Of a stretch of DNA of 64,000 nucleotides, positions 12,786 through 63,371 are shown piece by piece. The notes under the pieces were generated by a model that made no database searches, was not told the DNA's origin, and saw only the letters and a list, made by a program, of their open reading frames with translations. Each line of letters opens with the position of its first letter. Positions within the stretch are counted from its first letter, which is position 1. The position numbers and the translations under genes were made by a program. The DNA comes from a virus, in the IMG/VR virus record IMGVR_UViG_3300043411_001575, positions 1-64,000 of that record, one strand, 5' to 3'.

Positions 12786-13050
12786 GTCAATCACCCCCAC
12801 TTTAAAATGTGTGGGCTTGAATCGTGAGATTCAAGGGTAACAGGTTGATTAGGGGGTAAGTTTTAAATTAAAAAGTAAAATGCAGAAGTTAAGAAAGAGA
12901 AATACATACACACCTACGGATGCTCCACAAGTCCGTAGCAACTGTGATTTGCAATTAAACAAAGAGGAAACTCTTAGTGTTGCAAGTTCAAAAACCTCTC
13001 TTAACATCCCCGAAGTGGATTTATCGAAGCGTACATCGAAACGTAAAGTT
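12786..13050 (+). ncRNA. omega-RNA (HEARO-like) scaffold of IscB
   Basis: GTCAATCACC...GGTTGATTAG pairing, CTTGAATC-GTGA-GATTCAAG hairpin, CTACGGA...TCCGTAG hairpin directly upstream of the PLMP domain; 3' boundary approximate. Confidence 0.75.
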
Positions 13051-14217
13051 GTTGTGTACGTAGTTGGAATTGATGGGAATCCTTTAATGCCTTGCAAACC
13101 TGCTAAAGCTAAAAAGCTACTAAAATCAGGTAAAGCAAAGGTTTTTAAAATGTTCCCATTTACTATCCAATTAAATTTTGAGTGTGAGAATGTAGTGCAA
13201 AATGTTAGTTTAGGAATCGACACGGGCTTTGAAAATATTGGGTTTTCTTGCGTATCAGAAAAAGAAGAATTGATTTCAGGAACAGTGATTTTAGATGGAA
13301 ACACTTCGAGTAGATTGACTGAGAAAAAAATGTACAGAAGAGGTAGAAGAAACAAATTATGGTATCGCAAACCACGTTTTTTAAACAGAAAAAAGAGGTT
13401 AGGAATGTTACCGCCATCAGTTGAAAGAAGGTACAATGCACATCTTAAAATTATTAATTTGTGTAAAAAAGTTTTACCTATTGTGGATGTAAAAATTGAA
13501 GTTGGAAATTTTGATATTCAGAAAATAAATAATCCTGAAATAAGTGGGACAGATTATCAACAGGGCGATATGTACGGATACCAAAATGTTCGAAGTTATT
13601 TAATGTCTCGTGAAAATGGAAAATGTCAATTATGTAAAAAAGAGTTTTCTAAAGGTCAACCTTCGCATATTCACCATATTTTAGAGCGTAGTAAAAAAGG
13701 CTCTGATATGCCGAAAAACTTAGCAATCCTTCACAAAAAATGCCATGAAAAATTACACAAAAAAGGACTTAAATTGTCTGCTCCGAAAACAATGAAAGCA
13801 GAAACTTTTATGTCGAGTATTTCGAAAAGATTTTATTCTGATTTGAAATTTAAAGCAACTTTTGGCTACATAACTTTTGTTGATAGAAATAAATTAGGAC
13901 TTGAAAAAACACATTACAACGATGCTTTTGTGATTGCAAATGGCACGAATCAAGAAAGAATTACCCCTATTAAAATACGTCAAAAACGTAGAAATAACAG
14001 GGCGATTCAGCTTAATAGAAAAGGATTTAAACCTTCTATTCGCAAACAACGTTATCCAATTCAACCAAAAGATTTAATTTGGATTGATGGTGAAAAATTT
14101 ACAGCAAACGGAACGCATAACAACGGAACTCGTGTGATTGTTGAAGGAACGAAAAAAAGTATTTTACTAAAAAAAGTAGATAAAATTTATAACTTTGGTA
14201 CATTTACATTTGAATAA
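12880..14217 (+). CDS. iscB: RNA-guided endonuclease IscB
   Basis: PLMP motif, RuvC-I (LGIDTG), Arg-rich bridge helix, RuvC-II (IEVGNFD), HNH (CQLC...HIHH...NLAILHKKCH), RuvC-III (THYNDA); real start may be GTG at 13054. Confidence 0.93.
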   Translation: MQKLRKRNTYTPTDAPQVRSNCDLQLNKEETLSVASSKTSLNIPEVDLSKRTSKRKVVVYVVGIDGNPLMPCKPAKAKKLLKSGKAKVFKMFPFTIQLNFECENVVQNVSLGIDTGFENIGFSCVSEKEELISGTVILDGNTSSRLTEKKMYRRGRRNKLWYRKPRFLNRKKRLGMLPPSVERRYNAHLKIINLCKKVLPIVDVKIEVGNFDIQKINNPEISGTDYQQGDMYGYQNVRSYLMSRENGKCQLCKKEFSKGQPSHIHHILERSKKGSDMPKNLAILHKKCHEKLHKKGLKLSAPKTMKAETFMSSISKRFYSDLKFKATFGYITFVDRNKLGLEKTHYNDAFVIANGTNQERITPIKIRQKRRNNRAIQLNRKGFKPSIRKQRYPIQPKDLIWIDGEKFTANGTHNNGTRVIVEGTKKSILLKKVDKIYNFGTFTFE

Positions 14218-24922: not shown

Positions 24923-26362
<1,440 letters not shown>

Positions 26363-44557: not shown

Positions 44558-44860
44558 TTAGTTAGCATCTACATCAAAGTAAATTGAAAAACCAAGCTCT
44601 TTGGCAAGCTCTAATTCTATCATAGCTCCTTTGCTTGTTTTGTAATTTGATAACATAAATATAGCATCACACTCCATCATAGCAATAATATCTTCCTTCA
44701 TATAGGATAGCCAAGTCTTATCATGGGCATGATTTAGCTTAATTGGATTAACAGGGATGTATCCTAATTTTATACATTTAGATTCTGCTTCATTAAATAG
44801 CCATTCGGCATCGCATAATTCTAAACCTGTTATTTTACCACTAATATAAATCTTTTTCAT
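44558..44860 (-). CDS. DUF4406 / nucleoside-deoxyribosyltransferase-like protein
   Basis: KIYISGKITG...VNP...W..YM..DI..MMECDAIFML...SKGA.IE..LA. Confidence 0.85.
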   Translation of the reverse strand: MKKIYISGKITGLELCDAEWLFNEAESKCIKLGYIPVNPIKLNHAHDKTWLSYMKEDIIAMMECDAIFMLSNYKTSKGAMIELELAKELGFSIYFDVDAN

Positions 44861-44892
44861 TCAATTAATTTTGTTATTTTACCGTTAAACCG

Positions 44893-44965
44893 TTGAGCGA
44901 CTAGGAATCGAACCTAGAGTCTCTTGAATCAAAATCAAGCGTGTTGCCTGTTACACTATCGCACA
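44893..44965 (-). tRNA. tRNA-Gln(TTG)
   Basis: Cloverleaf; anticodon arm CTTGA-TTTTGAT-TCAAG; T-loop TTCGATT. Confidence 0.9.
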
Positions 44966-45009
44966 ATAAATATTTTATTTTCAGAAAACAAATATACAAA
45001 AAAAATTAG

Positions 45010-45081
45010 TGTGAGTAACAGGAATTGAACCTGTGCGGACGGATTTTCAGTCCGTTGCTCTACCTGCTGAGCTATACCCAC
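45010..45081 (-). tRNA. tRNA-Phe(GAA)
   Basis: ACGGA-CTGAAAA-TCCGT; canonical D and T arms. Confidence 0.93.
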
Positions 45082-45120
45082 ATAAGGCTTTTCAGCCTAT
45101 TGTTTGTTGTTAAATTATTA

Positions 45121-45864
45121 TTACCAATTACCCTTACCTGAATGATAATCATTTAATCTGTTTTTTCTTTTTCCGTTACCTATATTCTTTCCGCAATAAG
45201 TAGGAGTCTGAGCATGGCAGTTAGGGCATATGTTTCTTATATTAGAAACTTTGTCATTTTCAGAATCTCCATCTATGTGGTCTAATTGTAATGGTATTTT
45301 ATTTCCCATCCAATCATGTAAACCGCAAACCATGCACTTGTGACCATTTTTATCAATTAGATATAATTTAAGTATTTTATTCTTACTCGTTCCTGATATG
45401 TTACTTTTAAATGTTCCATCTTCTATTTTTTTGAAATTATATAGTTTCCTGTGATAATAACTACATTCACGAGAGCAAAATTTAGCCACATGGTTTTTTA
45501 ATTTTTTTCCACATATTATACAATTTAATTTTTCCCTCCACATTGGATGACTATTTCCTGACATCAAATATTTATTATTACATTCTCTTGAACACGATTT
45601 AAAATCTTTGTTTTTAGAACCAATAGCCTTCTCGTACTCTTTTCCACAATGACATATACAAATTACTCTTTCATACTTTCTTTTATTAATATTTGAATTA
45701 AAATGCTCTATACTTAAATTAAATTTATCTAACAGTTTTTTAATTTTTTTCATGTTAGCTCCGTTAATACTTAATTTTAAAGCTCTACATAAATCACTTT
45801 TTGAATTTGAATTAATTAATATTTTTTCAAATTCTTCTTTTGTTATACTTTTAAAGTCTAGCAT
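45121..45864 (-). CDS. HNH homing-type endonuclease
   Basis: Zn-finger repeats plus CMVCG...LQLDHIDG...N...N...CPNCHAQT. Confidence 0.9.
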   Translation of the reverse strand: MLDFKSITKEEFEKILINSNSKSDLCRALKLSINGANMKKIKKLLDKFNLSIEHFNSNINKRKYERVICICHCGKEYEKAIGSKNKDFKSCSRECNNKYLMSGNSHPMWREKLNCIICGKKLKNHVAKFCSRECSYYHRKLYNFKKIEDGTFKSNISGTSKNKILKLYLIDKNGHKCMVCGLHDWMGNKIPLQLDHIDGDSENDKVSNIRNICPNCHAQTPTYCGKNIGNGKRKNRLNDYHSGKGNW

Positions 45865-45930
45865 TTGGATGTCGATTTAATGTAAAGTTACAAATAAAAT
45901 TAAATAAAACAAACGTCATCTTATACTAAG

Positions 45931-46002
45931 TCGAAAGTATCGGACTTGAACCGCTCCTGATTACCCCAAATAACCTATGCTACCAATTACAACATACTCT
46001 CG
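45931..46002 (-). tRNA. tRNA-Pro(TGG)
   Basis: GGTTA-TTTGGGG-TAATC; C1-G72, A73. Confidence 0.85.
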
Positions 46003-46018
46003 ATATTATTAAATAAAA

Positions 46019-46028
46019 TTAAAGAACG
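46019..46028 (-). promoter_or_regulatory. boxA-like antitermination motif
   Basis: CGTTCTTTAA directly after terminator 1. Confidence 0.6.
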
Positions 46029-46041
46029 AATTTTTGAACAT

Positions 46042-46070
46042 AAAAAAACCCTGATGATTAGTCAGGGTCT
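46042..46070 (-). terminator. attenuator terminator 1
   Basis: ACCCTGA-CTAATCA-TCAGGGT plus T tract. Confidence 0.85.
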
Positions 46071-46097
46071 CTTATTGTTTGTTTGTGATATATTTTT

Positions 46098-46190
46098 TCA
46101 CCCACACGGACAATACGCTCCTGACAACTGCAATCTAAACTGCGGTTGTTGAGGAAAAAATTGTTGAGTGTATGTGTTTGTTATTTTCAT
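46098..46190 (-). CDS. leader peptide of the Pro/Phe/Gln tRNA operon (MKITNTYTQQFFPQQPQFRLQLSGAYCPCG)
   Basis: Translated by hand; codons 9-18 are all Q/F/P; lies between promoter and terminator. Confidence 0.88.
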   Translation of the reverse strand: MKITNTYTQQFFPQQPQFRLQLSGAYCPCG

Positions 46191-46194
46191 GATG

Positions 46195-46226
46195 CAAAGT
46201 AACGAAATGTTTTTTAATCTACCAAA
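46195..46226 (-). promoter_or_regulatory. promoter of tRNA operon 1
   Basis: TTTG-N20-TTACTTTG, ending 4 nt before the leader ATG. Confidence 0.6.
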
Positions 46227-46270
46227 TTTATTTTGAATTATTTTTAAAAATATTTTATTAACTTCGTGAA

Positions 46271-46768
46271 ATGATAGTAATGAAAGGTGTTTGCGAAGTT
46301 TGTAATGATGGAAAAGAAAAGCAATTAGCTAAGAAAAGACCTCCTTTGTGTGGTTATCATTACTCAATTGAACAGCGAAAAAAATCTGCTGAGAAAAACA
46401 AAGACAAGCCAAAGAAAGTTCAAAAGCAATTAAAACGTACTCCATTGTCTTATAAAAGAAAAGCTACAGGAGAGCTTGAACTTATGAAGAGTATTTGGGA
46501 TAACATGGAAGAACATAAATCTTTCATTAGCGGAAATCCAATTTATGAATTCAATGTAAGTTGCATGGCACATGTATTAGCAAAAGCAAAAAATAAGTAT
46601 CCTAAATTTAAATTGAATCCTGATAATATAAAATTACTCACATACGAAGAACACTTCAAATGGGATAATGCTCCACGCTCTGAGTTAATAAAACTTCCTG
46701 AGTGGGACAAAATGTTTAAGTTAGAAGAAGAACTAAAACAAGAATATAAATTATTGTTTGGATTATAA
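46271..46768 (+). CDS. HNH/NinG-like nuclease-fold protein
   Basis: CEVC..CGYH finger; AHVLAK..YP...NPDNIKLLT.EEH..WD. Confidence 0.5.
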   Translation: MIVMKGVCEVCNDGKEKQLAKKRPPLCGYHYSIEQRKKSAEKNKDKPKKVQKQLKRTPLSYKRKATGELELMKSIWDNMEEHKSFISGNPIYEFNVSCMAHVLAKAKNKYPKFKLNPDNIKLLTYEEHFKWDNAPRSELIKLPEWDKMFKLEEELKQEYKLLFGL

Positions 46769-46769
46769 A

Positions 46770-47264
46770 TTAATGCTTATTGTTATGCTTTTCCCGATGA
46801 TGCTTTCTACACAACCAATTTACTGTTAAAGGCTCATTGTAATCTTCATGATGCGCAAATGTATTTATGCTATCACATCCTTCAGTCTCGCATATTCCAC
46901 GAATTAATTTACCTGTCTTAACTGCGTAATATACCTTTTTTCTTGCTCTTATCTTTTCAGGATACCTTTCGCATTGGATTTTTTTATAGTGGTAATTGTT
47001 ATTTGATATGCCATCCTTCCAATTAGGATTATTTTCACCATCAAATTTATATTTTTCATGTATTATTTTAGCACTTTTTTTACCGTTCTCTATTCTAAGC
47101 TTACTAATTTGTGCAGTTGTTCTTTTAATATTATTCCTCATCATTATCCTTTCAATACCCCAATGAGTCATATTGAATTTTTCAGCGAGTACTGAATTAG
47201 ATAAATGTAAATTATTTGAAATAAATTCAAGCATTTCATTTTTTTGTTCCTTTGTTTTTCTCAT
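46770..47264 (-). CDS. HNH-like endonuclease
   Basis: GENNPNWKDG, GICETEGC...AHHEDY..PL.V.WLCRKHH; start moved to ATG 47264 because the upstream part of the track ORF overlaps tRNA-Leu. Confidence 0.8.
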   Translation of the reverse strand: MRKTKEQKNEMLEFISNNLHLSNSVLAEKFNMTHWGIERIMMRNNIKRTTAQISKLRIENGKKSAKIIHEKYKFDGENNPNWKDGISNNNYHYKKIQCERYPEKIRARKKVYYAVKTGKLIRGICETEGCDSINTFAHHEDYNEPLTVNWLCRKHHREKHNNKH

Positions 47265-47306
47265 AATACAAATATACATAAATCTTAGTAGTTGTACAAT
47301 AAAAAG

Positions 47307-47387
47307 TATCCCTAGCAGAACTCGAATCTGCAAGTCAAAGACAATGGTTTTTAAGACCATCCTGTTTACCAATTTCAGCATAGGGAT
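47307..47387 (-). tRNA. tRNA-Leu(TAA)
   Basis: ATGGT-CTTAAAA-ACCAT; long variable arm. Confidence 0.9.
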
Positions 47388-47393
47388 ATTTTG

Positions 47394-47475
47394 TACAGAT
47401 AGAGGTATTCGAAACCTCATGCATTTCTGCGTATGATTCTAAATCATGTGCGTCTTCCAATTCCGCCATATCTGC
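47394..47475 (-). tRNA. tRNA-Leu(TAG)
   Basis: ATGA-TTTAGAA-TCAT; long variable arm. Confidence 0.88.
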
Positions 47476-47491
47476 ATTTGTTTTTTTATTG

Positions 47492-47564
47492 TTGGAACAC
47501 TAGGAGTCGAACCTAGATTAGCGGTTTTACAGACCGAATTCTTACCCTTAGAAATGATGCTCCA
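47492..47564 (-). tRNA. tRNA-Tyr(GTA), atypical short variable arm
   Basis: CGGT-CTGTAAA-ACCG; T arm CTAGG-TTCGACT-CCTAG. Confidence 0.75.
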
Positions 47565-47570
47565 ATTTTG

Positions 47571-47656
47571 CGGAAACAGCAGGACTTCAACCTGCACGGG
47601 CTTTTATACCCCTAGCGTTTTTCAAGAACGTGTACCTCTGTCAATTGGGTGCTTCC
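47571..47656 (-). tRNA. tRNA-Ser(TGA)
   Basis: CGTT-CTTGAAA-AACG; long variable arm; G73. Confidence 0.8.
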
Positions 47657-47685
47657 AAATTATTTTATTTCAATGAACTGTTTTG

Positions 47686-47769
47686 CGGAGAGCAGTGGTC
47701 GTGACCCACACTCGTTTAACCGAGCCGACAACTTAGCAGGTTGCGCCTACCCTGATAGGTTTACTCTCC
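47686..47769 (-). tRNA. tRNA-Ser(GCT)
   Basis: GCAAC-CTGCTAA-GTTGT; long variable arm; G73; non-canonical T-loop. Confidence 0.8.
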
Positions 47770-47773
47770 TTTT

Positions 47774-47847
47774 GGGTAATATATCGGGATTGAACCGATG
47801 ACCTCTCGAATCACAATCGAGCGTTCTACCACTGAACTAATATCACC
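47774..47847 (-). tRNA. tRNA-His(GTG)
   Basis: CTCGA-TTGTGAT-TCGAG; C73. Confidence 0.9.
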
Positions 47848-47857
47848 ATGTATCTTT

Positions 47858-47867
47858 TTAAAGAACG
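47858..47867 (-). promoter_or_regulatory. boxA-like antitermination motif
   Basis: CGTTCTTTAA directly after terminator 2. Confidence 0.6.
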
Positions 47868-47881
47868 AATTAATATAAAAC

Positions 47882-47911
47882 AAAAAACCCCAAACTTTTC
47901 AGTTCAGGGTT
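47882..47911 (-). terminator. attenuator terminator 2
   Basis: AACCCTGAACT-GAAA-AGTTTGGGGTT plus T tract. Confidence 0.85.
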
Positions 47912-47933
47912 CTTATCATGTAAACAAATATGT

Positions 47934-48011
47934 TTAACTACAATAGAGATTTTCCTGAACCGATTGCTTCGGATACAGCGACAAATAACTATGTAATGAT
48001 GTATTTTTCAT
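47934..48011 (-). CDS. leader peptide of the His/Ser/Ser/Tyr/Leu/Leu tRNA operon (MKNTSLHSYLSLYPKQSVQENLYCS)
   Basis: Translated by hand; codons 5-13 are all S/L/H/Y. Confidence 0.88.
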   Translation of the reverse strand: MKNTSLHSYLSLYPKQSVQENLYCS

Positions 48012-48019
48012 AATGGATG

Positions 48020-48050
48020 CAAATTAAAGGATTATTTATTTATCCGCAAA
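48020..48050 (-). promoter_or_regulatory. promoter of tRNA operon 2
   Basis: TTTG-N19-TTAATTTG, ending 8 nt before the leader ATG. Confidence 0.6.
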
Positions 48051-48641
48051 ATTTATTTTTAATAAAAATCATATTGAATTGAAAATGAGTGAAATAAAAT
48101 TATTCGATGCAAATTAATTCTACTTTTTTGACTTTATCCCAAATCTTACCGAATGCAGTAGGATTCAACCCAACTTTTGCAGTCCAATTTGTAGGGGCAA
48201 TCCATTTCTGTCCATCGTGTAAATTACCCACAGAAGCTACAGAAGTACCTCCTCCTGATTTTTTCTTCCAATAAATACGGTACAAACCACATCTTAATTC
48301 TTTAACGTCTTCTTTTTTCATCTTATTTTTTTTAATTTAAAATACGTCTAACTTCAGGAAAACATTTGTCTAATTTATTCTCCCATTCTACTGAGTAACG
48401 TGAATAATAGTCCATGTTTCTATTTACTCTTTCAATAGCCTGCTCTCTTGTGAAATTGTTACATATCATACAGAATTCAATGTGAGTTTCATGAGCATCT
48501 TTAGCTAATTTAAATTTGTCTTTCATTAAAACATCTTTGAAAAACCAATCCATAAACCAATCATATACGATTGGTAATTCTTTTGTTGGATTAGCATTCC
48601 ATTCTTTTAATTCCTTTAATGATTTTATTCTTTTTTTCATT

Positions 48642-49235
48642 TTATAATACATTTAATTCTGAATATTCTGTACCCCAATTTTCAATAGCAGCTTCATTAT
48701 ATGCTTTAGCAGCATCTTCTTCACTTAAAAAATAACCTAAATGCTTTTTCTTGTAGTCTAATTTTATTGACGCAGACCACTTGTTAGCGAACTTATTCCA
48801 ACTGACTCCTTTATAAATACTGCTTGGAACATTACCATTAGCGGTTCTTTGTTTTTTCTCTTTATAGTGAGCTTTTTGATGGCTTATTAATTCAAGATTA
48901 TCTCTTCTTAAATTTAATGGATTCCTGTCTTTATAATGAATTACCGTTTTACCTTCTGCTTCAAGTAATAATTTAGCAAAAGGAGCTACAATTCTTTTTC
49001 CTTCTTTTGAAATCCAAAGTGCCATTACTGCTTGTCTCTGTTCATCAAACCAAATATCTTGTTGCCTGAGAACTTCATAATCAAAATCATCAAACTGAAT
49101 ATTTTTTCCGCAAGTGGTTTTTACCCATCTGAATTGGTCTGCAAAAATACGCATTGCCTTTACCACATCTTCAGATGTAAAACTATTATTCTCTTTCCCA
49201 AATAAATCTTTTATAACCTGTATCTCTGTTTTCAT
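48642..49235 (-). CDS. HNH-AP2 domain protein
   Basis: Degenerate HNH (IHYKDRNPLNLRRDNL) plus AP2 (YKGVSW...KWSASI...HLGYF.SEEDAAKAYNEAA). Confidence 0.85.
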   Translation of the reverse strand: MKTEIQVIKDLFGKENNSFTSEDVVKAMRIFADQFRWVKTTCGKNIQFDDFDYEVLRQQDIWFDEQRQAVMALWISKEGKRIVAPFAKLLLEAEGKTVIHYKDRNPLNLRRDNLELISHQKAHYKEKKQRTANGNVPSSIYKGVSWNKFANKWSASIKLDYKKKHLGYFLSEEDAAKAYNEAAIENWGTEYSELNVL

Positions 49236-50141: not shown

Positions 50142-51194
50142 TTACTCTTCGTTATTGTAAAACACTTTGTAAAACTTCATTCCTTTTTCTTCATCAAAAC
50201 CTTTTTGAACTAGGTCATGTCTTCCATGAATGTAAAGATGAAAGTTCTTGTCTAATTTGATGATTCCTTTAAAATATTTCTCTTGTTTCTTTACCGCTGT
50301 TGCTGAAATTTCGAAGTCTTCAACATCATTTTTTACGTGATTAACTTCTTCACTAATTGTTCGGTATTCTTTGAAGCTATCAATTAATTCAGGTTGAGAT
50401 AAAACTTCTGCTTGAAACTCTTCTATGTTAAATCTATCCTTATCTTTAAAGTAGTTTAGTGACCTGTCTTTAATCAACATTTGGTCAACAGGCTCAACAT
50501 TGTTTTCTTGTGTTAAAACCTCTTCACAGAAATTATTAATTGTAGCTAACATGTTGTTTGTATGAAAGAATCTATCTTCACAAAGTTTTACCCCTAAGAA
50601 ATCTTCTGTCCAATATAAAGCTGCCTGAGCTATTTTATGACTATTATCAATGATGCTGATTTTATAACCATCTTCATTGTTAACATTGAATATCAAACAT
50701 CCCTTGTCAAGTTTATTGATGTTTATTCCATTCTCTGCTTCTACCTCAAAATTATCAAGGTTTTGATTTAATTTTAAGTATGTTTCTTTATTCTCCGACT
50801 TGAAGATTCCAATAGCATCACAAAGTTCTCCATCTACAACACAATCTCTGATATATGTCATAAAGAAATCACCACCTTTAATTTTAGGATGATTACTTTG
50901 GTCATAAAGACGTTGAGCAATCTTCTTAGAGTTTTCAAACATAGTTGATGGGTTATCAAACACATCTCGTACATACGATTGAACATCATAAATTTTAATC
51001 GCATCAGGCTTTCTGAATTGGAAATACACATCAGATTTAAAGGTATTCAGGAAGAAATGGTAAATAGTTTCCTTAACCCATTCATCGCCTATTTTATTAG
51101 GCATGTTTGCGAAGACAATCTCTTCTCCTAATCCTTTGTTACCAACGTAGTGTATTGCGATTTCGTTGGATTCACTTCTTTTAAATTCAATCAT
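50142..51194 (-). CDS. nucleoid-associated protein (NA37/YejK-like, Bacteroidota type)
   Basis: IHYVGNK, LYDQSNHPKIKGG, AIGIFKSENKETYL, GININKLDKGCLIFN, YWTEDFL, IKLDKNFHLYIHG. Confidence 0.8.
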   Translation of the reverse strand: MIEFKRSESNEIAIHYVGNKGLGEEIVFANMPNKIGDEWVKETIYHFFLNTFKSDVYFQFRKPDAIKIYDVQSYVRDVFDNPSTMFENSKKIAQRLYDQSNHPKIKGGDFFMTYIRDCVVDGELCDAIGIFKSENKETYLKLNQNLDNFEVEAENGININKLDKGCLIFNVNNEDGYKISIIDNSHKIAQAALYWTEDFLGVKLCEDRFFHTNNMLATINNFCEEVLTQENNVEPVDQMLIKDRSLNYFKDKDRFNIEEFQAEVLSQPELIDSFKEYRTISEEVNHVKNDVEDFEISATAVKKQEKYFKGIIKLDKNFHLYIHGRHDLVQKGFDEEKGMKFYKVFYNNEE

Positions 51195-60969: not shown

Positions 60970-61044
60970 TGGTAGCGGAAGGGTGACTCTAACACCCGAC
61001 CTTTGGGATATGAACCCAACGAGCTAACCCTGCTCTATTCCGCA
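60970..61044 (-). tRNA. initiator tRNA-fMet(CAT)
   Basis: TTGGG-TTCATAT-CCCAA (three G-C pairs); 1-72 mismatch; encoded CCA. Confidence 0.85.
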
Positions 61045-61614
61045 CTGTTTCATTTCATAATGTAGTTCTCTATGACAATTAGAACAAACAATTATGCATT
61101 TATCAAGTTCTTTTTTTATCTTTTCCCAACACGTTGTAGAATATCTTGATATATTAAAATCTTTTTGTTTTGGTTCAATATGGTGGAAATCAAACGCCCA
61201 TATACATTTATCATATCCACATTTTTCACATTTACCACCTTTATATTTAACTGCTTTTTCTTTAATTTTTTGCCGTGCTGTTTTTACTCTCAAATAATTT
61301 CTTTTTTTTCTTTCTTGTGTACTTAAAATTACTTTTTTTACTATTAATTTTAAATATCTTTTTATTCCTGATACAGAAACATTAAATTTTTCTGCTGTTT
61401 GTTTTAATGTATGTGTTTTATAATACTCTTGAACTTTTAATATTTTTTCATCAGATAGTTTCCTTGTATCCATAAGACCTATATATGATAGATTATGGTT
61501 TTTGCAATGATAACTAATAGTAGATGAAGAGCATTTTAGCTTATTTTTTATTTTGCTATAACTCCACCCTTTCTCTCTTAAATTTAATATTTTATTCTTC
61601 AAACCTTTACCCAT
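61024..61614 (-). CDS. HNH endonuclease with N-terminal HTHs
   Basis: GGKCEKCGY...FDFHH...KC..VCSNCHRELH; start moved to ATG 61614; stop lies inside tRNA-fMet. Confidence 0.88.
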   Translation of the reverse strand: MGKGLKNKILNLREKGWSYSKIKNKLKCSSSTISYHCKNHNLSYIGLMDTRKLSDEKILKVQEYYKTHTLKQTAEKFNVSVSGIKRYLKLIVKKVILSTQERKKRNYLRVKTARQKIKEKAVKYKGGKCEKCGYDKCIWAFDFHHIEPKQKDFNISRYSTTCWEKIKKELDKCIIVCSNCHRELHYEMKQCGIEQG

Positions 61615-61661
61615 ATAAAAATTATTAATGATACAAATATAGTTAAAAGTTCGATAAATAG

Positions 61662-61735
61662 TACGCAAAGATGGATTTGAACCACCGACCACATGATTAT
61701 CAGTCATGTATTCTAACCAACTGAACTATTTGCGT
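61662..61735 (-). tRNA. tRNA-Ile(GAT)
   Basis: CATGA-CTGATAA-TCATG. Confidence 0.93.
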
Positions 61736-62246: not shown

Positions 62247-62318
62247 AGCCGTGAGAAGGAATCGAACCCTCGTGCGTAGATTACAAATCTACTGCTTTAC
62301 CAACTAAGCTATTACGGC
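62247..62318 (-). tRNA. tRNA-Thr(TGT)
   Basis: GTAGA-TTTGTAA-TCTAC. Confidence 0.92.
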
Positions 62319-63025
62319 TAAAATGACTTACCATCTCTTGCTCTTTGTCTCCTACTATGCCTTCCATTACCTTTATTTAAAGCTTTATAATTCAGTGTTA
62401 GTGAATGGCAATTTGGACAAATTAACTCGACATTATCAGAATTATTATTTTTAGAATTTCCATCTTTATGATTTAGTTCAATTGGAACTTTTTTTGTTGT
62501 TTCATTTATTTCGTTCCAACCACACTTCATACACTTTTCACCATACATCAATATCAATGTTCTCTTTAATACAAAATCACTTAATCCGTCCGTATCATTA
62601 TTATTTATCCTTTCAATTAATTTTTTATTTCTGTAATCAGAGCAGCAAACAATAGAACAATATTTTGTAAAATTAGTTTTACACTCACTCTCACAATTCA
62701 CGCATTTTGGCTTCTCTTTTTTTTTCTTTCTAATTCTAAATTTATTAGAAAATGAAGCTGAACATGAATTATTACAAAATTTAGTTCTTACAACACGTTT
62801 GCCATTAATAAAATCAATATTACTAATAGAATTTCCACAATTTAGACACTCAATAATTTTCCTTTTCAAGTTTTCAGAGTAGTATCCTTCTCTATTCAAA
62901 TGATTTTTTATCAATCCCCATGTAAGATTTAATTCTTCCGATATTTGCATATACGTAAATCCTTCTTTAATCATTTTTTTAGCAAAATTTGATTGCTCAA
63001 TTGTTATTTTTCTATTAACACCCAT
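62318..63025 (-). CDS. HNH homing-type endonuclease
   Basis: CMKCGW...IELNHKDG...NN...N..LICPNCHSLT; paralog of 45121-45864. Confidence 0.9.
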   Translation of the reverse strand: MGVNRKITIEQSNFAKKMIKEGFTYMQISEELNLTWGLIKNHLNREGYYSENLKRKIIECLNCGNSISNIDFINGKRVVRTKFCNNSCSASFSNKFRIRKKKKEKPKCVNCESECKTNFTKYCSIVCCSDYRNKKLIERINNNDTDGLSDFVLKRTLILMYGEKCMKCGWNEINETTKKVPIELNHKDGNSKNNNSDNVELICPNCHSLTLNYKALNKGNGRHSRRQRARDGKSF

Positions 63026-63116: not shown

Positions 63117-63126
63117 TCAAAGAACG
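63117..63126 (-). promoter_or_regulatory. boxA-like antitermination motif
   Basis: CGTTCTTTGA directly after terminator 3. Confidence 0.6.
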
Positions 63127-63132
63127 TAAAAC

Positions 63133-63162
63133 AAAAAGCCCCAACTTTTTAGGTTGAGGCTT
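63133..63162 (-). terminator. attenuator terminator 3
   Basis: AAGCCTCAAC-CTAAAAA-GTTGGGGCTT plus TTTGTTTT. Confidence 0.85.
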
Positions 63163-63186
63163 CTGTGTTTGTATTTTTATGTTTTA

Positions 63187-63297
63187 TTACACTCCCATTG
63201 TCGTAATTAAACAATACACAGATGCCCCTTGAGTACACGCCTTATCGCCCGTATTCTCTGACCACATATTTTCCACTATAATATTTCTGCGTTTCAT
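63187..63297 (-). CDS. leader peptide of the 16-tRNA operon (MKRRNIIVENMWSENTGDKACTQGASVYCLITTMGV)
   Basis: Translated by hand; the first 21 codons include all 13 amino acids served by the downstream tRNAs. Confidence 0.88.
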   Translation of the reverse strand: MKRRNIIVENMWSENTGDKACTQGASVYCLITTMGV

Positions 63298-63338
63298 TAT
63301 TTTTATTATTTATTACCACACCATGTAGTAATGAGCTG

Positions 63339-63371
63339 CAAATATACAACTATTGTTTTTTTAAATGCAAA
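63339..63371 (-). promoter_or_regulatory. promoter of tRNA operon 3
   Basis: TTTG-N21-TATATTTG on the minus strand. Confidence 0.7.

Follow-up and report, generated by a model that had tools for sequence, protein, structure and literature searches.

A putative leader-peptide attenuator in a phage tRNA region carries codons matched to the tRNA genes behind it

It has long been debated why phages possess tRNA genes and at what times they draw on them, with codon compensation set against escape from tRNA-targeting immunity (PMC10264068, PMC11555353, PMC12409363). The question is posed in concrete form by a 64,000-nucleotide (nt) stretch of viral DNA, hereafter the window, taken from the start of an IMG/VR virus record of 169,658 bp (31% G+C; estimated completeness 82%). 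ARAGORN finds 24 tRNA genes in the window, all of them minus-strand genes located from 44.9 to 62.3 kb. What decides when one block of them, a six-gene operon headed by tRNA-His, is transcribed? The 253-nt gap between a 73-codon open reading frame (ORF, 48321-48100) and tRNA-His (47846) houses a promoter-like site, a short ORF, a terminator and a conserved box, together termed unit A. Sequence and computation show the parts of this unit, the ways in which they can pair, how far they are conserved, and how the leader codons match the tRNA set. On this basis and on modelled folds, unit A is likely to be a ribosome-mediated (leader-peptide) transcription attenuator and to have a functional link with the tRNA block behind it.

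All elements of unit A lie on the minus strand. The promoter-like site (48020-48050) is of Bacteroidota type, with TTTG at 48050-48047, a 19-nt spacer and TTAATTTG at 48027-48020; the Bacteroidota promoter consensus is TAnnTTTG / TTTG. The same two-element layout stands in front of the two other units of this phage. An ATG follows 8 nt downstream of TTAATTTG, and an mRNA started from this site would be nearly leaderless. The leader ORF (47934-48011) is an open frame of 25 codons and a stop, which ends beside the switch and is kept in five homologs. Its codons 5-13 (47973-47999) form the regulatory run SLHSYLSLY, encoded by TCA TTA CAT AGT TAT TTG TCG CTG TAT. An initial annotation of this DNA had singled out the ORF 48011->47934 and its nine Ser, Leu, His and Tyr (S/L/H/Y) codons, and re-reading places them at 47999-47973. 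The run consists solely of codons read by the six downstream tRNAs, where the decoding of TTG, TCG and CTG by anticodons with U at position 34 (U34) presumes U-G wobble. Runs of at least nine S/L/H/Y codons occur seven times in the six frames of the 170-kb genome, and about 0.003 would be expected by chance in the ~165 sense-strand positions from promoter to terminator.

Region 1 (TTACATAG, 47989-47996), located inside the run, is the partner of region 2b (CTATTGTAG, 47938-47946) in the ribosome-free fold, and region 2b adjoins the stop codon. Region 2a (47954-47963), positioned between the two, contains GGTTCAGG and forms the upstream strand of the antiterminator. The intrinsic terminator (47877-47914), one of two strong minus-strand terminators in 20 kb, consists of a 14-pair stem, a GAAA loop and a T-tract (47914-47883), and its 5' arm (47908-47901) doubles as the downstream antiterminator strand. 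The 36 nt from the terminator to tRNA-His include the conserved box GTTCTTTAA (47858-47866), with tRNA-His 12 nt beyond. No TAnnTTTG promoter motif is found between the terminator and tRNA-His, so that, on sequence evidence, the tRNAs would be reached by terminator read-through.

The operon itself (47306-47846) comprises tRNA-His(GUG) at 47846-47774, tRNA-Ser(GCU) at 47769-47685, a divergent tRNA-Ser(UGA)-like gene at 47656-47572, tRNA-Tyr(GUA) at 47564-47491, tRNA-Leu(UAG) at 47475-47393 and tRNA-Leu(UAA) at 47387-47306. Five of the six genes counted by the initial annotation are confirmed by ARAGORN calls. The sixth folds into a class-II cloverleaf with a CUUGAAA anticodon loop. It is kept in the related contig L007, where an acceptor-stem G-U becomes G-C, and is syntenic with a Ser(tga) gene that ARAGORN calls in another homologous contig, L072; its best model match is tRNA-Sec, at 21.9 bits. 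It is best taken as a probable, not a certain, tRNA-Ser(UGA).

The initial annotation had also claimed that GGTTCAGG (47961-47954) is complementary to the terminator 5' arm. The two sequences indeed form 8 pairs, one of them G-U, between GGTTCAGG and CCTGAACT at 47908-47901, and the antiterminator extends to 10 pairs over 47963-47954 (with the 47910-47899 region). Its duplex reaches -18.1 kcal/mol, compared with -9.1 +/- 2.6 in 2000 dinucleotide shuffles (p = 0.0025); the complementarity between the 3' part of the leader and the terminator arm thereby exceeds that of 99.75% of the shuffles. Free of a ribosome, the leader folds at -34.4 kcal/mol, with z = -2.7 over the 171-nt stretch. This fold combines three elements: a long hairpin in which TTACATAG of the run pairs with CTATTGTAG beside the stop codon (region 1:2), a second, small one that spans the stop codon, and the terminator. 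A stalled ribosome was simulated by masking 30 nt around the A-site and computing the minimum-energy fold of the full leader. With the mask at codons 5, 7, 9 or 11, all terminator pairs are lost and the antiterminator is formed; with the stall at codon 13, the terminator is back.

Two further units of the same phage repeat this arrangement on the minus strand. Unit B (46019-46226), with a leader from 46190, stands before tRNA-Pro, followed by Phe and Gln, and its leader carries Q/F/P codons ten in a row, which happens nowhere else in the genome. The large unit C (63117-63371), with its leader at 63297-63187, stands before a 16-tRNA stretch starting with tRNA-Thr, and 31 of the 36 residues of this leader belong to the 13 amino acids served. 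The runs of the three units fit their own tRNA sets (S/L/H/Y; P/F/Q; 13 others), and these sets jointly cover all 20 amino acids. Antiterminator complementarity gives p = 0.079 in unit B and 0.002 in unit C. In unit B the nascent-transcript folds produce a textbook result: the free transcript forms the 1:2 hairpin with the terminator arm unpaired, a stall leads to the antiterminator, and a ribosome at the stop codon leaves the arm free. In the full-length equilibrium folds of units B and C the terminator is kept despite the stalled ribosome, and the switch is visible only in nascent-transcript folds. The ~45-nt 5' leader of unit C also holds a three-codon mini-ORF, ATG GTG TGG TAA (63331-63320, minus strand), upstream of its leader ORF.

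Five homologs of unit A are present on contigs from outside this record (L007:11799-12044, L043:843-1101, L072:2634-2888, L081:118-372 and L079:4345-4602). The last four are metagenome contigs; L007, an ENA contig, was found via a neighbouring gene, the one for an NA37-family nucleoid-associated protein, whose homolog P0002 (73% identity) led to it as the only true relative by this route. In L007 the tRNA blocks stand in the same order and all three units are present. Other routes were less productive. Searching cultured-phage records with the DNA of the unit yields tRNA-level matches only and no relatives, and single-protein locus searches in viral contigs with a 106-aa neighbour and the NA37-like protein yield nothing. 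Neighbouring PHROG-family proteins, searched against phages by tblastn, belong to widespread families with no synteny. The NA37 homologs P0010 and P0007 lie in other phages without nearby tRNAs, and P0008 and P0014 on Bacteroidota chromosomes.

The window sequence and its five homologs, the six A-type sequences, are related and do not constitute independent samples. The homolog leaders have 22-23 codons, stand before His, Ser, (Ser,) Tyr, Leu and Leu genes, and carry runs of 10-12 codons for S, L, H and Y only, in a residue order unlike that of the window. Their alignment (A1) contains near-invariant blocks at TTACATAG, GGTTCAGG, CTATTGTA and CCCTGAAC. GGTTCAGG is translated as Gly-Ser-Gly in the homologs and as Ser-Val-Gln in the window; CTATTGTAG is likewise frame-shifted between them, and the stop codon falls within 4 nt of the same place. 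Since the frame differs and the sequence is kept, selection on the 3' half acts on the RNA and not on the peptide, with the frame staying open. Across the six sequences, the region 1:2b helix is paired in 100% of cells, with one compensatory pair. The terminator, the 1:2 helix and an inner helix, which holds GGTTCAGG in the homologs, are together paired in 93.5% of cells, with three compensatory pairs, compared with at most 52% when slid; the antiterminator is paired in 95.8% (46/48 cells), with no double change. In nascent folds with a stall at any of codons 5-12, GGTTCAGG pairs with the terminator arm in 6/6 sequences, and without a ribosome the arm is free in 3/6.

Does the leader sample tRNA species or amino acids? 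The initial annotation argued for tRNA species, since both Ser and both Leu isoacceptors are covered, and made the claim depend on conserved synonymous codon choice, a check that the homologs pass. TCR, AGY, TTR and CTR codons, covering both Ser and both Leu boxes, are present in all six A-type leaders. The runs of these leaders together hold 21 TCN/CTN codons; the third base is A or G in 20 of them, the bases that U34 anticodons call for, although the genes of this phage often use codons ending in T. TCG makes up 9 of the 10 TCN codons in these runs, with TCG at ~4% of Ser codons (counted in long ORFs) and CTG at ~2% of Leu codons in the phage. For a wider count, covering leaders from the broader family described below, codons of Ser, Leu, Arg, Ile and the four-fold boxes were taken as informative, with strict wobble and an expectation from synonymous usage. 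Among all distinct leaders, 179 informative codons fit the operon anticodons where 136.5 are expected (z = 6.3), and with one leader per family 87 fit where 64.6 are expected (z = 4.9). For the window leader by itself, coverage of the four Ser/Leu classes has P = 0.16 (0.064 when unreadable codons are disallowed). This value is not significant, and the isoacceptor claim therefore rests on the family, whose homologs are not independent. Judged from these sequences, selection on individual isoacceptors is somewhat the more probable interpretation. The codon fit favours isoacceptors, as the initial annotation proposed; a stalled ribosome reports charged tRNA, and a shortage of a tRNA species and one of its amino acid are inseparable from sequence.

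The broader family was collected with a pattern made of the terminator tail and the box only, including no leader or tRNA sequence. In IMG/VR viral contigs it matches 26 loci, with same-strand tRNA genes following in 24; in JGI metagenome contigs it matches 53 loci, with tRNA arrays following in most; in prokaryote genomes (one per species, 596 Gb) it matches four loci, none with a tRNA array. Outside viral and metagenomic contigs the terminator-plus-box signature is all but absent, and it goes with tRNA arrays; unit A belongs to a widespread, apparently phage-specific family. Matches without a tRNA array, set aside, are L018, L048, L054 and its relatives, L073, L078, L080, L090, L094 and L095.

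An open leader frame is present in 16 leader families of this collection. Picking the longest ORF ending near the terminator gives a wrong frame or an extended start in two units of L007; a frame-blind run test was therefore used, together with leaders named by their first residues. In the frame-blind test, run over 11 lineages, the matched score is 47.5, compared with 24.7 +/- 3.7 when permuted (p <= 5e-6). With named leaders from the 16 families, the matched z-sum is 42.7, compared with -0.06 +/- 5.6 for shuffled pairings of leader and tRNA set; the maximum over 500,000 permutations is 27.3, none reaches the observed value (p <= 2e-6), and the matched tRNA set is the best-scoring one in 10 of the 16. 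The correspondence can be followed by eye: the leader of L086, rich in H, I, P and E, precedes tRNAs for His, Ile, Glu, Glu, Pro and Pro; that of L088 (K/H/S/F/W) precedes Trp, His, Phe, three Ser and Lys; that of L030 (N/Y/D/C) precedes Cys, Asp, Asn, Asn and Tyr; and that of L056 (Q/R/F/V) precedes Gln, Phe, Arg, Val and Arg. With the fold switched by a ribosome mask, the architecture and switch kept in five homologs, and leader and tRNA set covarying across 16 families, the attenuator reading of the initial annotation is supported. As a separate observation, ARAGORN assigns four-base anticodons (cata, ctat, gcca, acat, ttca) to tRNA-like genes of several related phage contigs, at L007:8152-8230 and L007:8717-8790 and in L033, L058 and L086; they may be artefacts, intron-bearing tRNAs or frameshift-suppressor-like tRNAs.

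From the arrangement of these parts we infer how unit A would operate, from transcription start through leader translation, stalling and read-through to the physiological trigger. Host RNA polymerase would start at the promoter-like site, and the 25-codon leader would be translated at once. When charged Ser, Leu, His and Tyr tRNAs are plentiful, the ribosome would reach the stop codon, region 2 would be covered or re-paired with region 1, the terminator would form, and transcription would end 36 nt short of tRNA-His. Slow decoding of any codon in the run would instead stall the ribosome, which would then hold region 1. GGTTCAGG, free under the stall, would capture the terminator 5' arm as soon as it is made; with the terminator blocked, the polymerase would read into the tRNA genes. 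The new phage tRNAs would end the stall, constituting negative feedback. Candidate triggers are the loss of host tRNAs to anticodon nucleases or host shut-off, and a mismatch in codon usage.

Several observations weigh against this attenuator model. The -7 box of the promoter-like site is one base off the consensus, and the leader has no Shine-Dalgarno sequence, near-leaderless initiation being assumed. The Ser(UGA)-like gene, which two codons of the run would require, is called neither by ARAGORN, even with relaxed settings, nor by the Rfam tRNA model RF00005. Helix covariation is thin, coming from six related sequences with no double change in the antiterminator. In the five homologs at equilibrium, longer terminators persist despite the stall, so that the switch there must be kinetic. 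In the unit of the window, the truncated ribosome-free transcript already has the antiterminator as its equilibrium fold, and a ribosome at the stop codon leaves GGTTCAGG uncovered; termination without a stall would therefore rely on the 1:2 hairpin folding first during transcription. The box could, in addition, be an independent start site that bypasses the attenuator.

This last point leads to the most substantial of the rival explanations, in which GTTCTTTRAA serves either as a processing signal or as a single-element promoter, for example one used by a phage sigma factor; the attenuator would then be bypassed in most tRNA synthesis and act at one infection stage only. After each terminator T-tract of the three units stands a box of the form GTTCTTT(A/G/T)AA, often continuing AATATT (47858-47866, 46020-46028 and 63118-63126). 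It is kept across otherwise unrelated leaders, 7-25 nt before the first tRNA in many units, and recurs without a leader at ~62104-62092, after tRNA-Met (62183-62109); weak sigma-like matches also occur in the phage. The box was, however, among the elements searched for, so its conservation follows partly from the search itself, and only the link to tRNA arrays counts as a result. It is unlike the Bacteroidota promoter consensus, and a start site of this kind leaves unexplained why leader codons track the tRNA set. We consider the proposal unlikely, and it is compatible with attenuation rather than exclusive of it. The box could mark a site of processing or of protein binding, or be a promoter specific to the phage; a search by eye for a conserved pairing partner of GTTCTTTRAA, for example in the terminator 5' flank, shows nothing consistent. 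Very unlikely, in our judgement, is a translation-independent RNA sensor, in which leader triplets pair directly with tRNA anticodons in the manner of a T-box and so decide between terminator and antiterminator. The triplets do fit the anticodons at wobble level, and in the 3' half of the leader the constraint is on the RNA rather than the peptide. Against such a sensor, no T-box or other Rfam leader matches at E <= 1, and in every family the triplets stand in one frame, opened by ATG, with a stop beside the switch; most leaders start with ATG AAA, suited to efficient initiation. We know of no T-box with nine to thirteen adjacent specifier triplets, which also counts against it.

A general translation gauge, with the leader responding to ribosome activity as a whole, or a functional micro-peptide acting in trans, would lack specificity for the downstream tRNAs. 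Global translation arrest would also trigger any leader-peptide switch, which speaks for a gauge, yet the units of one phage carry different runs, each fitting its own block; run composition is kept among the homologs where residue order is not, and the 3' part does not keep its reading frame. This explanation is scarcely plausible. The least probable of all, to which we give next to no credence, is a chance ORF before an ordinary terminator that ends the upstream gene (48321-48100), with the tRNAs reached by leaky read-through and the run coincidental. The seven S/L/H/Y runs in the genome and the non-significant Ser/Leu coverage of this one leader are in its favour. It is opposed by the very low expectation for a run at this place, the two further units that fit their own tRNA sets, the run kept in five homologs and the antiterminator complementarity, and it is strongly disfavoured by the covariation across the 16 families.

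Of the surroundings of unit A, the NA37-family protein (50142-51194, minus strand) shows 50-64% identity to Bacteroidota chromosomal proteins (Sediminibacterium, Bacteroidia metagenome-assembled genomes). This closeness supports a Bacteroidota host and a host-derived gene; the genome is taken to be that of an uncultured phage of Bacteroidota. An ORF at 24932-26362 (plus strand) matches the tRNA-splicing/repair ligase RtcB (Pfam E = 1.8e-34); an RtcB-like RNA repair enzyme beside a full tRNA set is in keeping with a conflict over tRNA integrity. Just past the window and directly upstream of the tRNA genes, ARAGORN finds a permuted tmRNA with the tag peptide GEVKLAA (G000:C1:64716-65002, minus strand; L006:717-1003). 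ORFs resembling HNH endonucleases, together with helix-turn-helix (HTH) ORFs, are scattered among the tRNA genes (62318-63025, 61024-61707, 48642-49235 and 45121-45864, all on the minus strand). One of these separates the leader and terminator of unit C from its first tRNA and carries its own TAAATTTG promoter motif. At 12786-13024 (plus strand) an HEARO RNA (Rfam, 114.8 bits), an IscB/HNH-associated guide-RNA element within the phage, overlaps the start of a 445-codon ORF (12880-14217).

If the attenuator model is true, a codon-matched attenuator in front of each block would let the phage gauge decoding speed codon by codon and make tRNAs on demand. The trp/his attenuation logic would be extended to genes whose products are themselves the sensed molecules, closing a very short feedback loop. 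The leaders would provide a sequence signature for finding such operons in metagenomes, and would constitute compact natural sensors of specific tRNA supply; the idea is directly testable with simple reporters. A larger picture can be sketched only tentatively, as possible rather than probable: many Bacteroidota phages, and perhaps others, may carry modular tRNA-demand sensors, each block being transcribed only upon slow decoding of the codons of its own isoacceptors. The phage would thereby replace, under feedback, host tRNAs lost to anticodon-nuclease defences or shut-off, and the sensors together with the RtcB ligase and the tmRNA would form a translation-rescue toolkit. Full-text searches of the paper library return no account of tRNA genes, whether of phages or of other genomes, that are controlled by a leader peptide or an attenuator.

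Among known systems, the Rfam His, Leu, Thr and Trp leader models give no match to unit A, nor does the T-box covariance model give any, either at E <= 1 across 44800-48150 or, for the window as a whole, at the gathering threshold. In mechanism, T-boxes and unit A both make the expression of translation-related genes depend on the state of specific tRNAs, by way of a choice between terminator and antiterminator. A T-box, however, binds uncharged tRNA directly, via one specifier codon and the T-box sequence, and operates free of translation, whereas unit A presents an ORF with many codons. The resemblance to leader-peptide attenuators is closer. The multivalent leaders of thr (sensing Thr/Ile) and ilvGMEDA (sensing Ile/Val/Leu), and that of pheST, are built on a short ORF that is translated and carries a stretch of regulatory codons, a plan that the putative leader ORF of unit A follows. 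Amino-acid operon attenuators and unit A further share the mutually exclusive regions 1:2, 2:3 and 3:4, an intrinsic terminator ahead of the genes under control, the use of rare codons in the run, and a run stall that is predicted to give read-through. The structural hallmarks of the class, namely ORF, run, terminator, antiterminator and 1:2 pairing, are all present in unit A, the antiterminator in silico. The two differ in what is regulated: tRNAs, not biosynthesis, transport or aminoacyl-tRNA synthetase genes, and because the product consists of tRNAs, it would feed back directly on the decoding of the leader. Unit A also samples four amino acids and six isoacceptors in nine codons, and is phage-borne, nearly leaderless and modular, with three units per genome serving all 20 amino acids. 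In conclusion, the best reading of unit A is an attenuator of the trp/his type, placed here in front of a tRNA operon of a phage.

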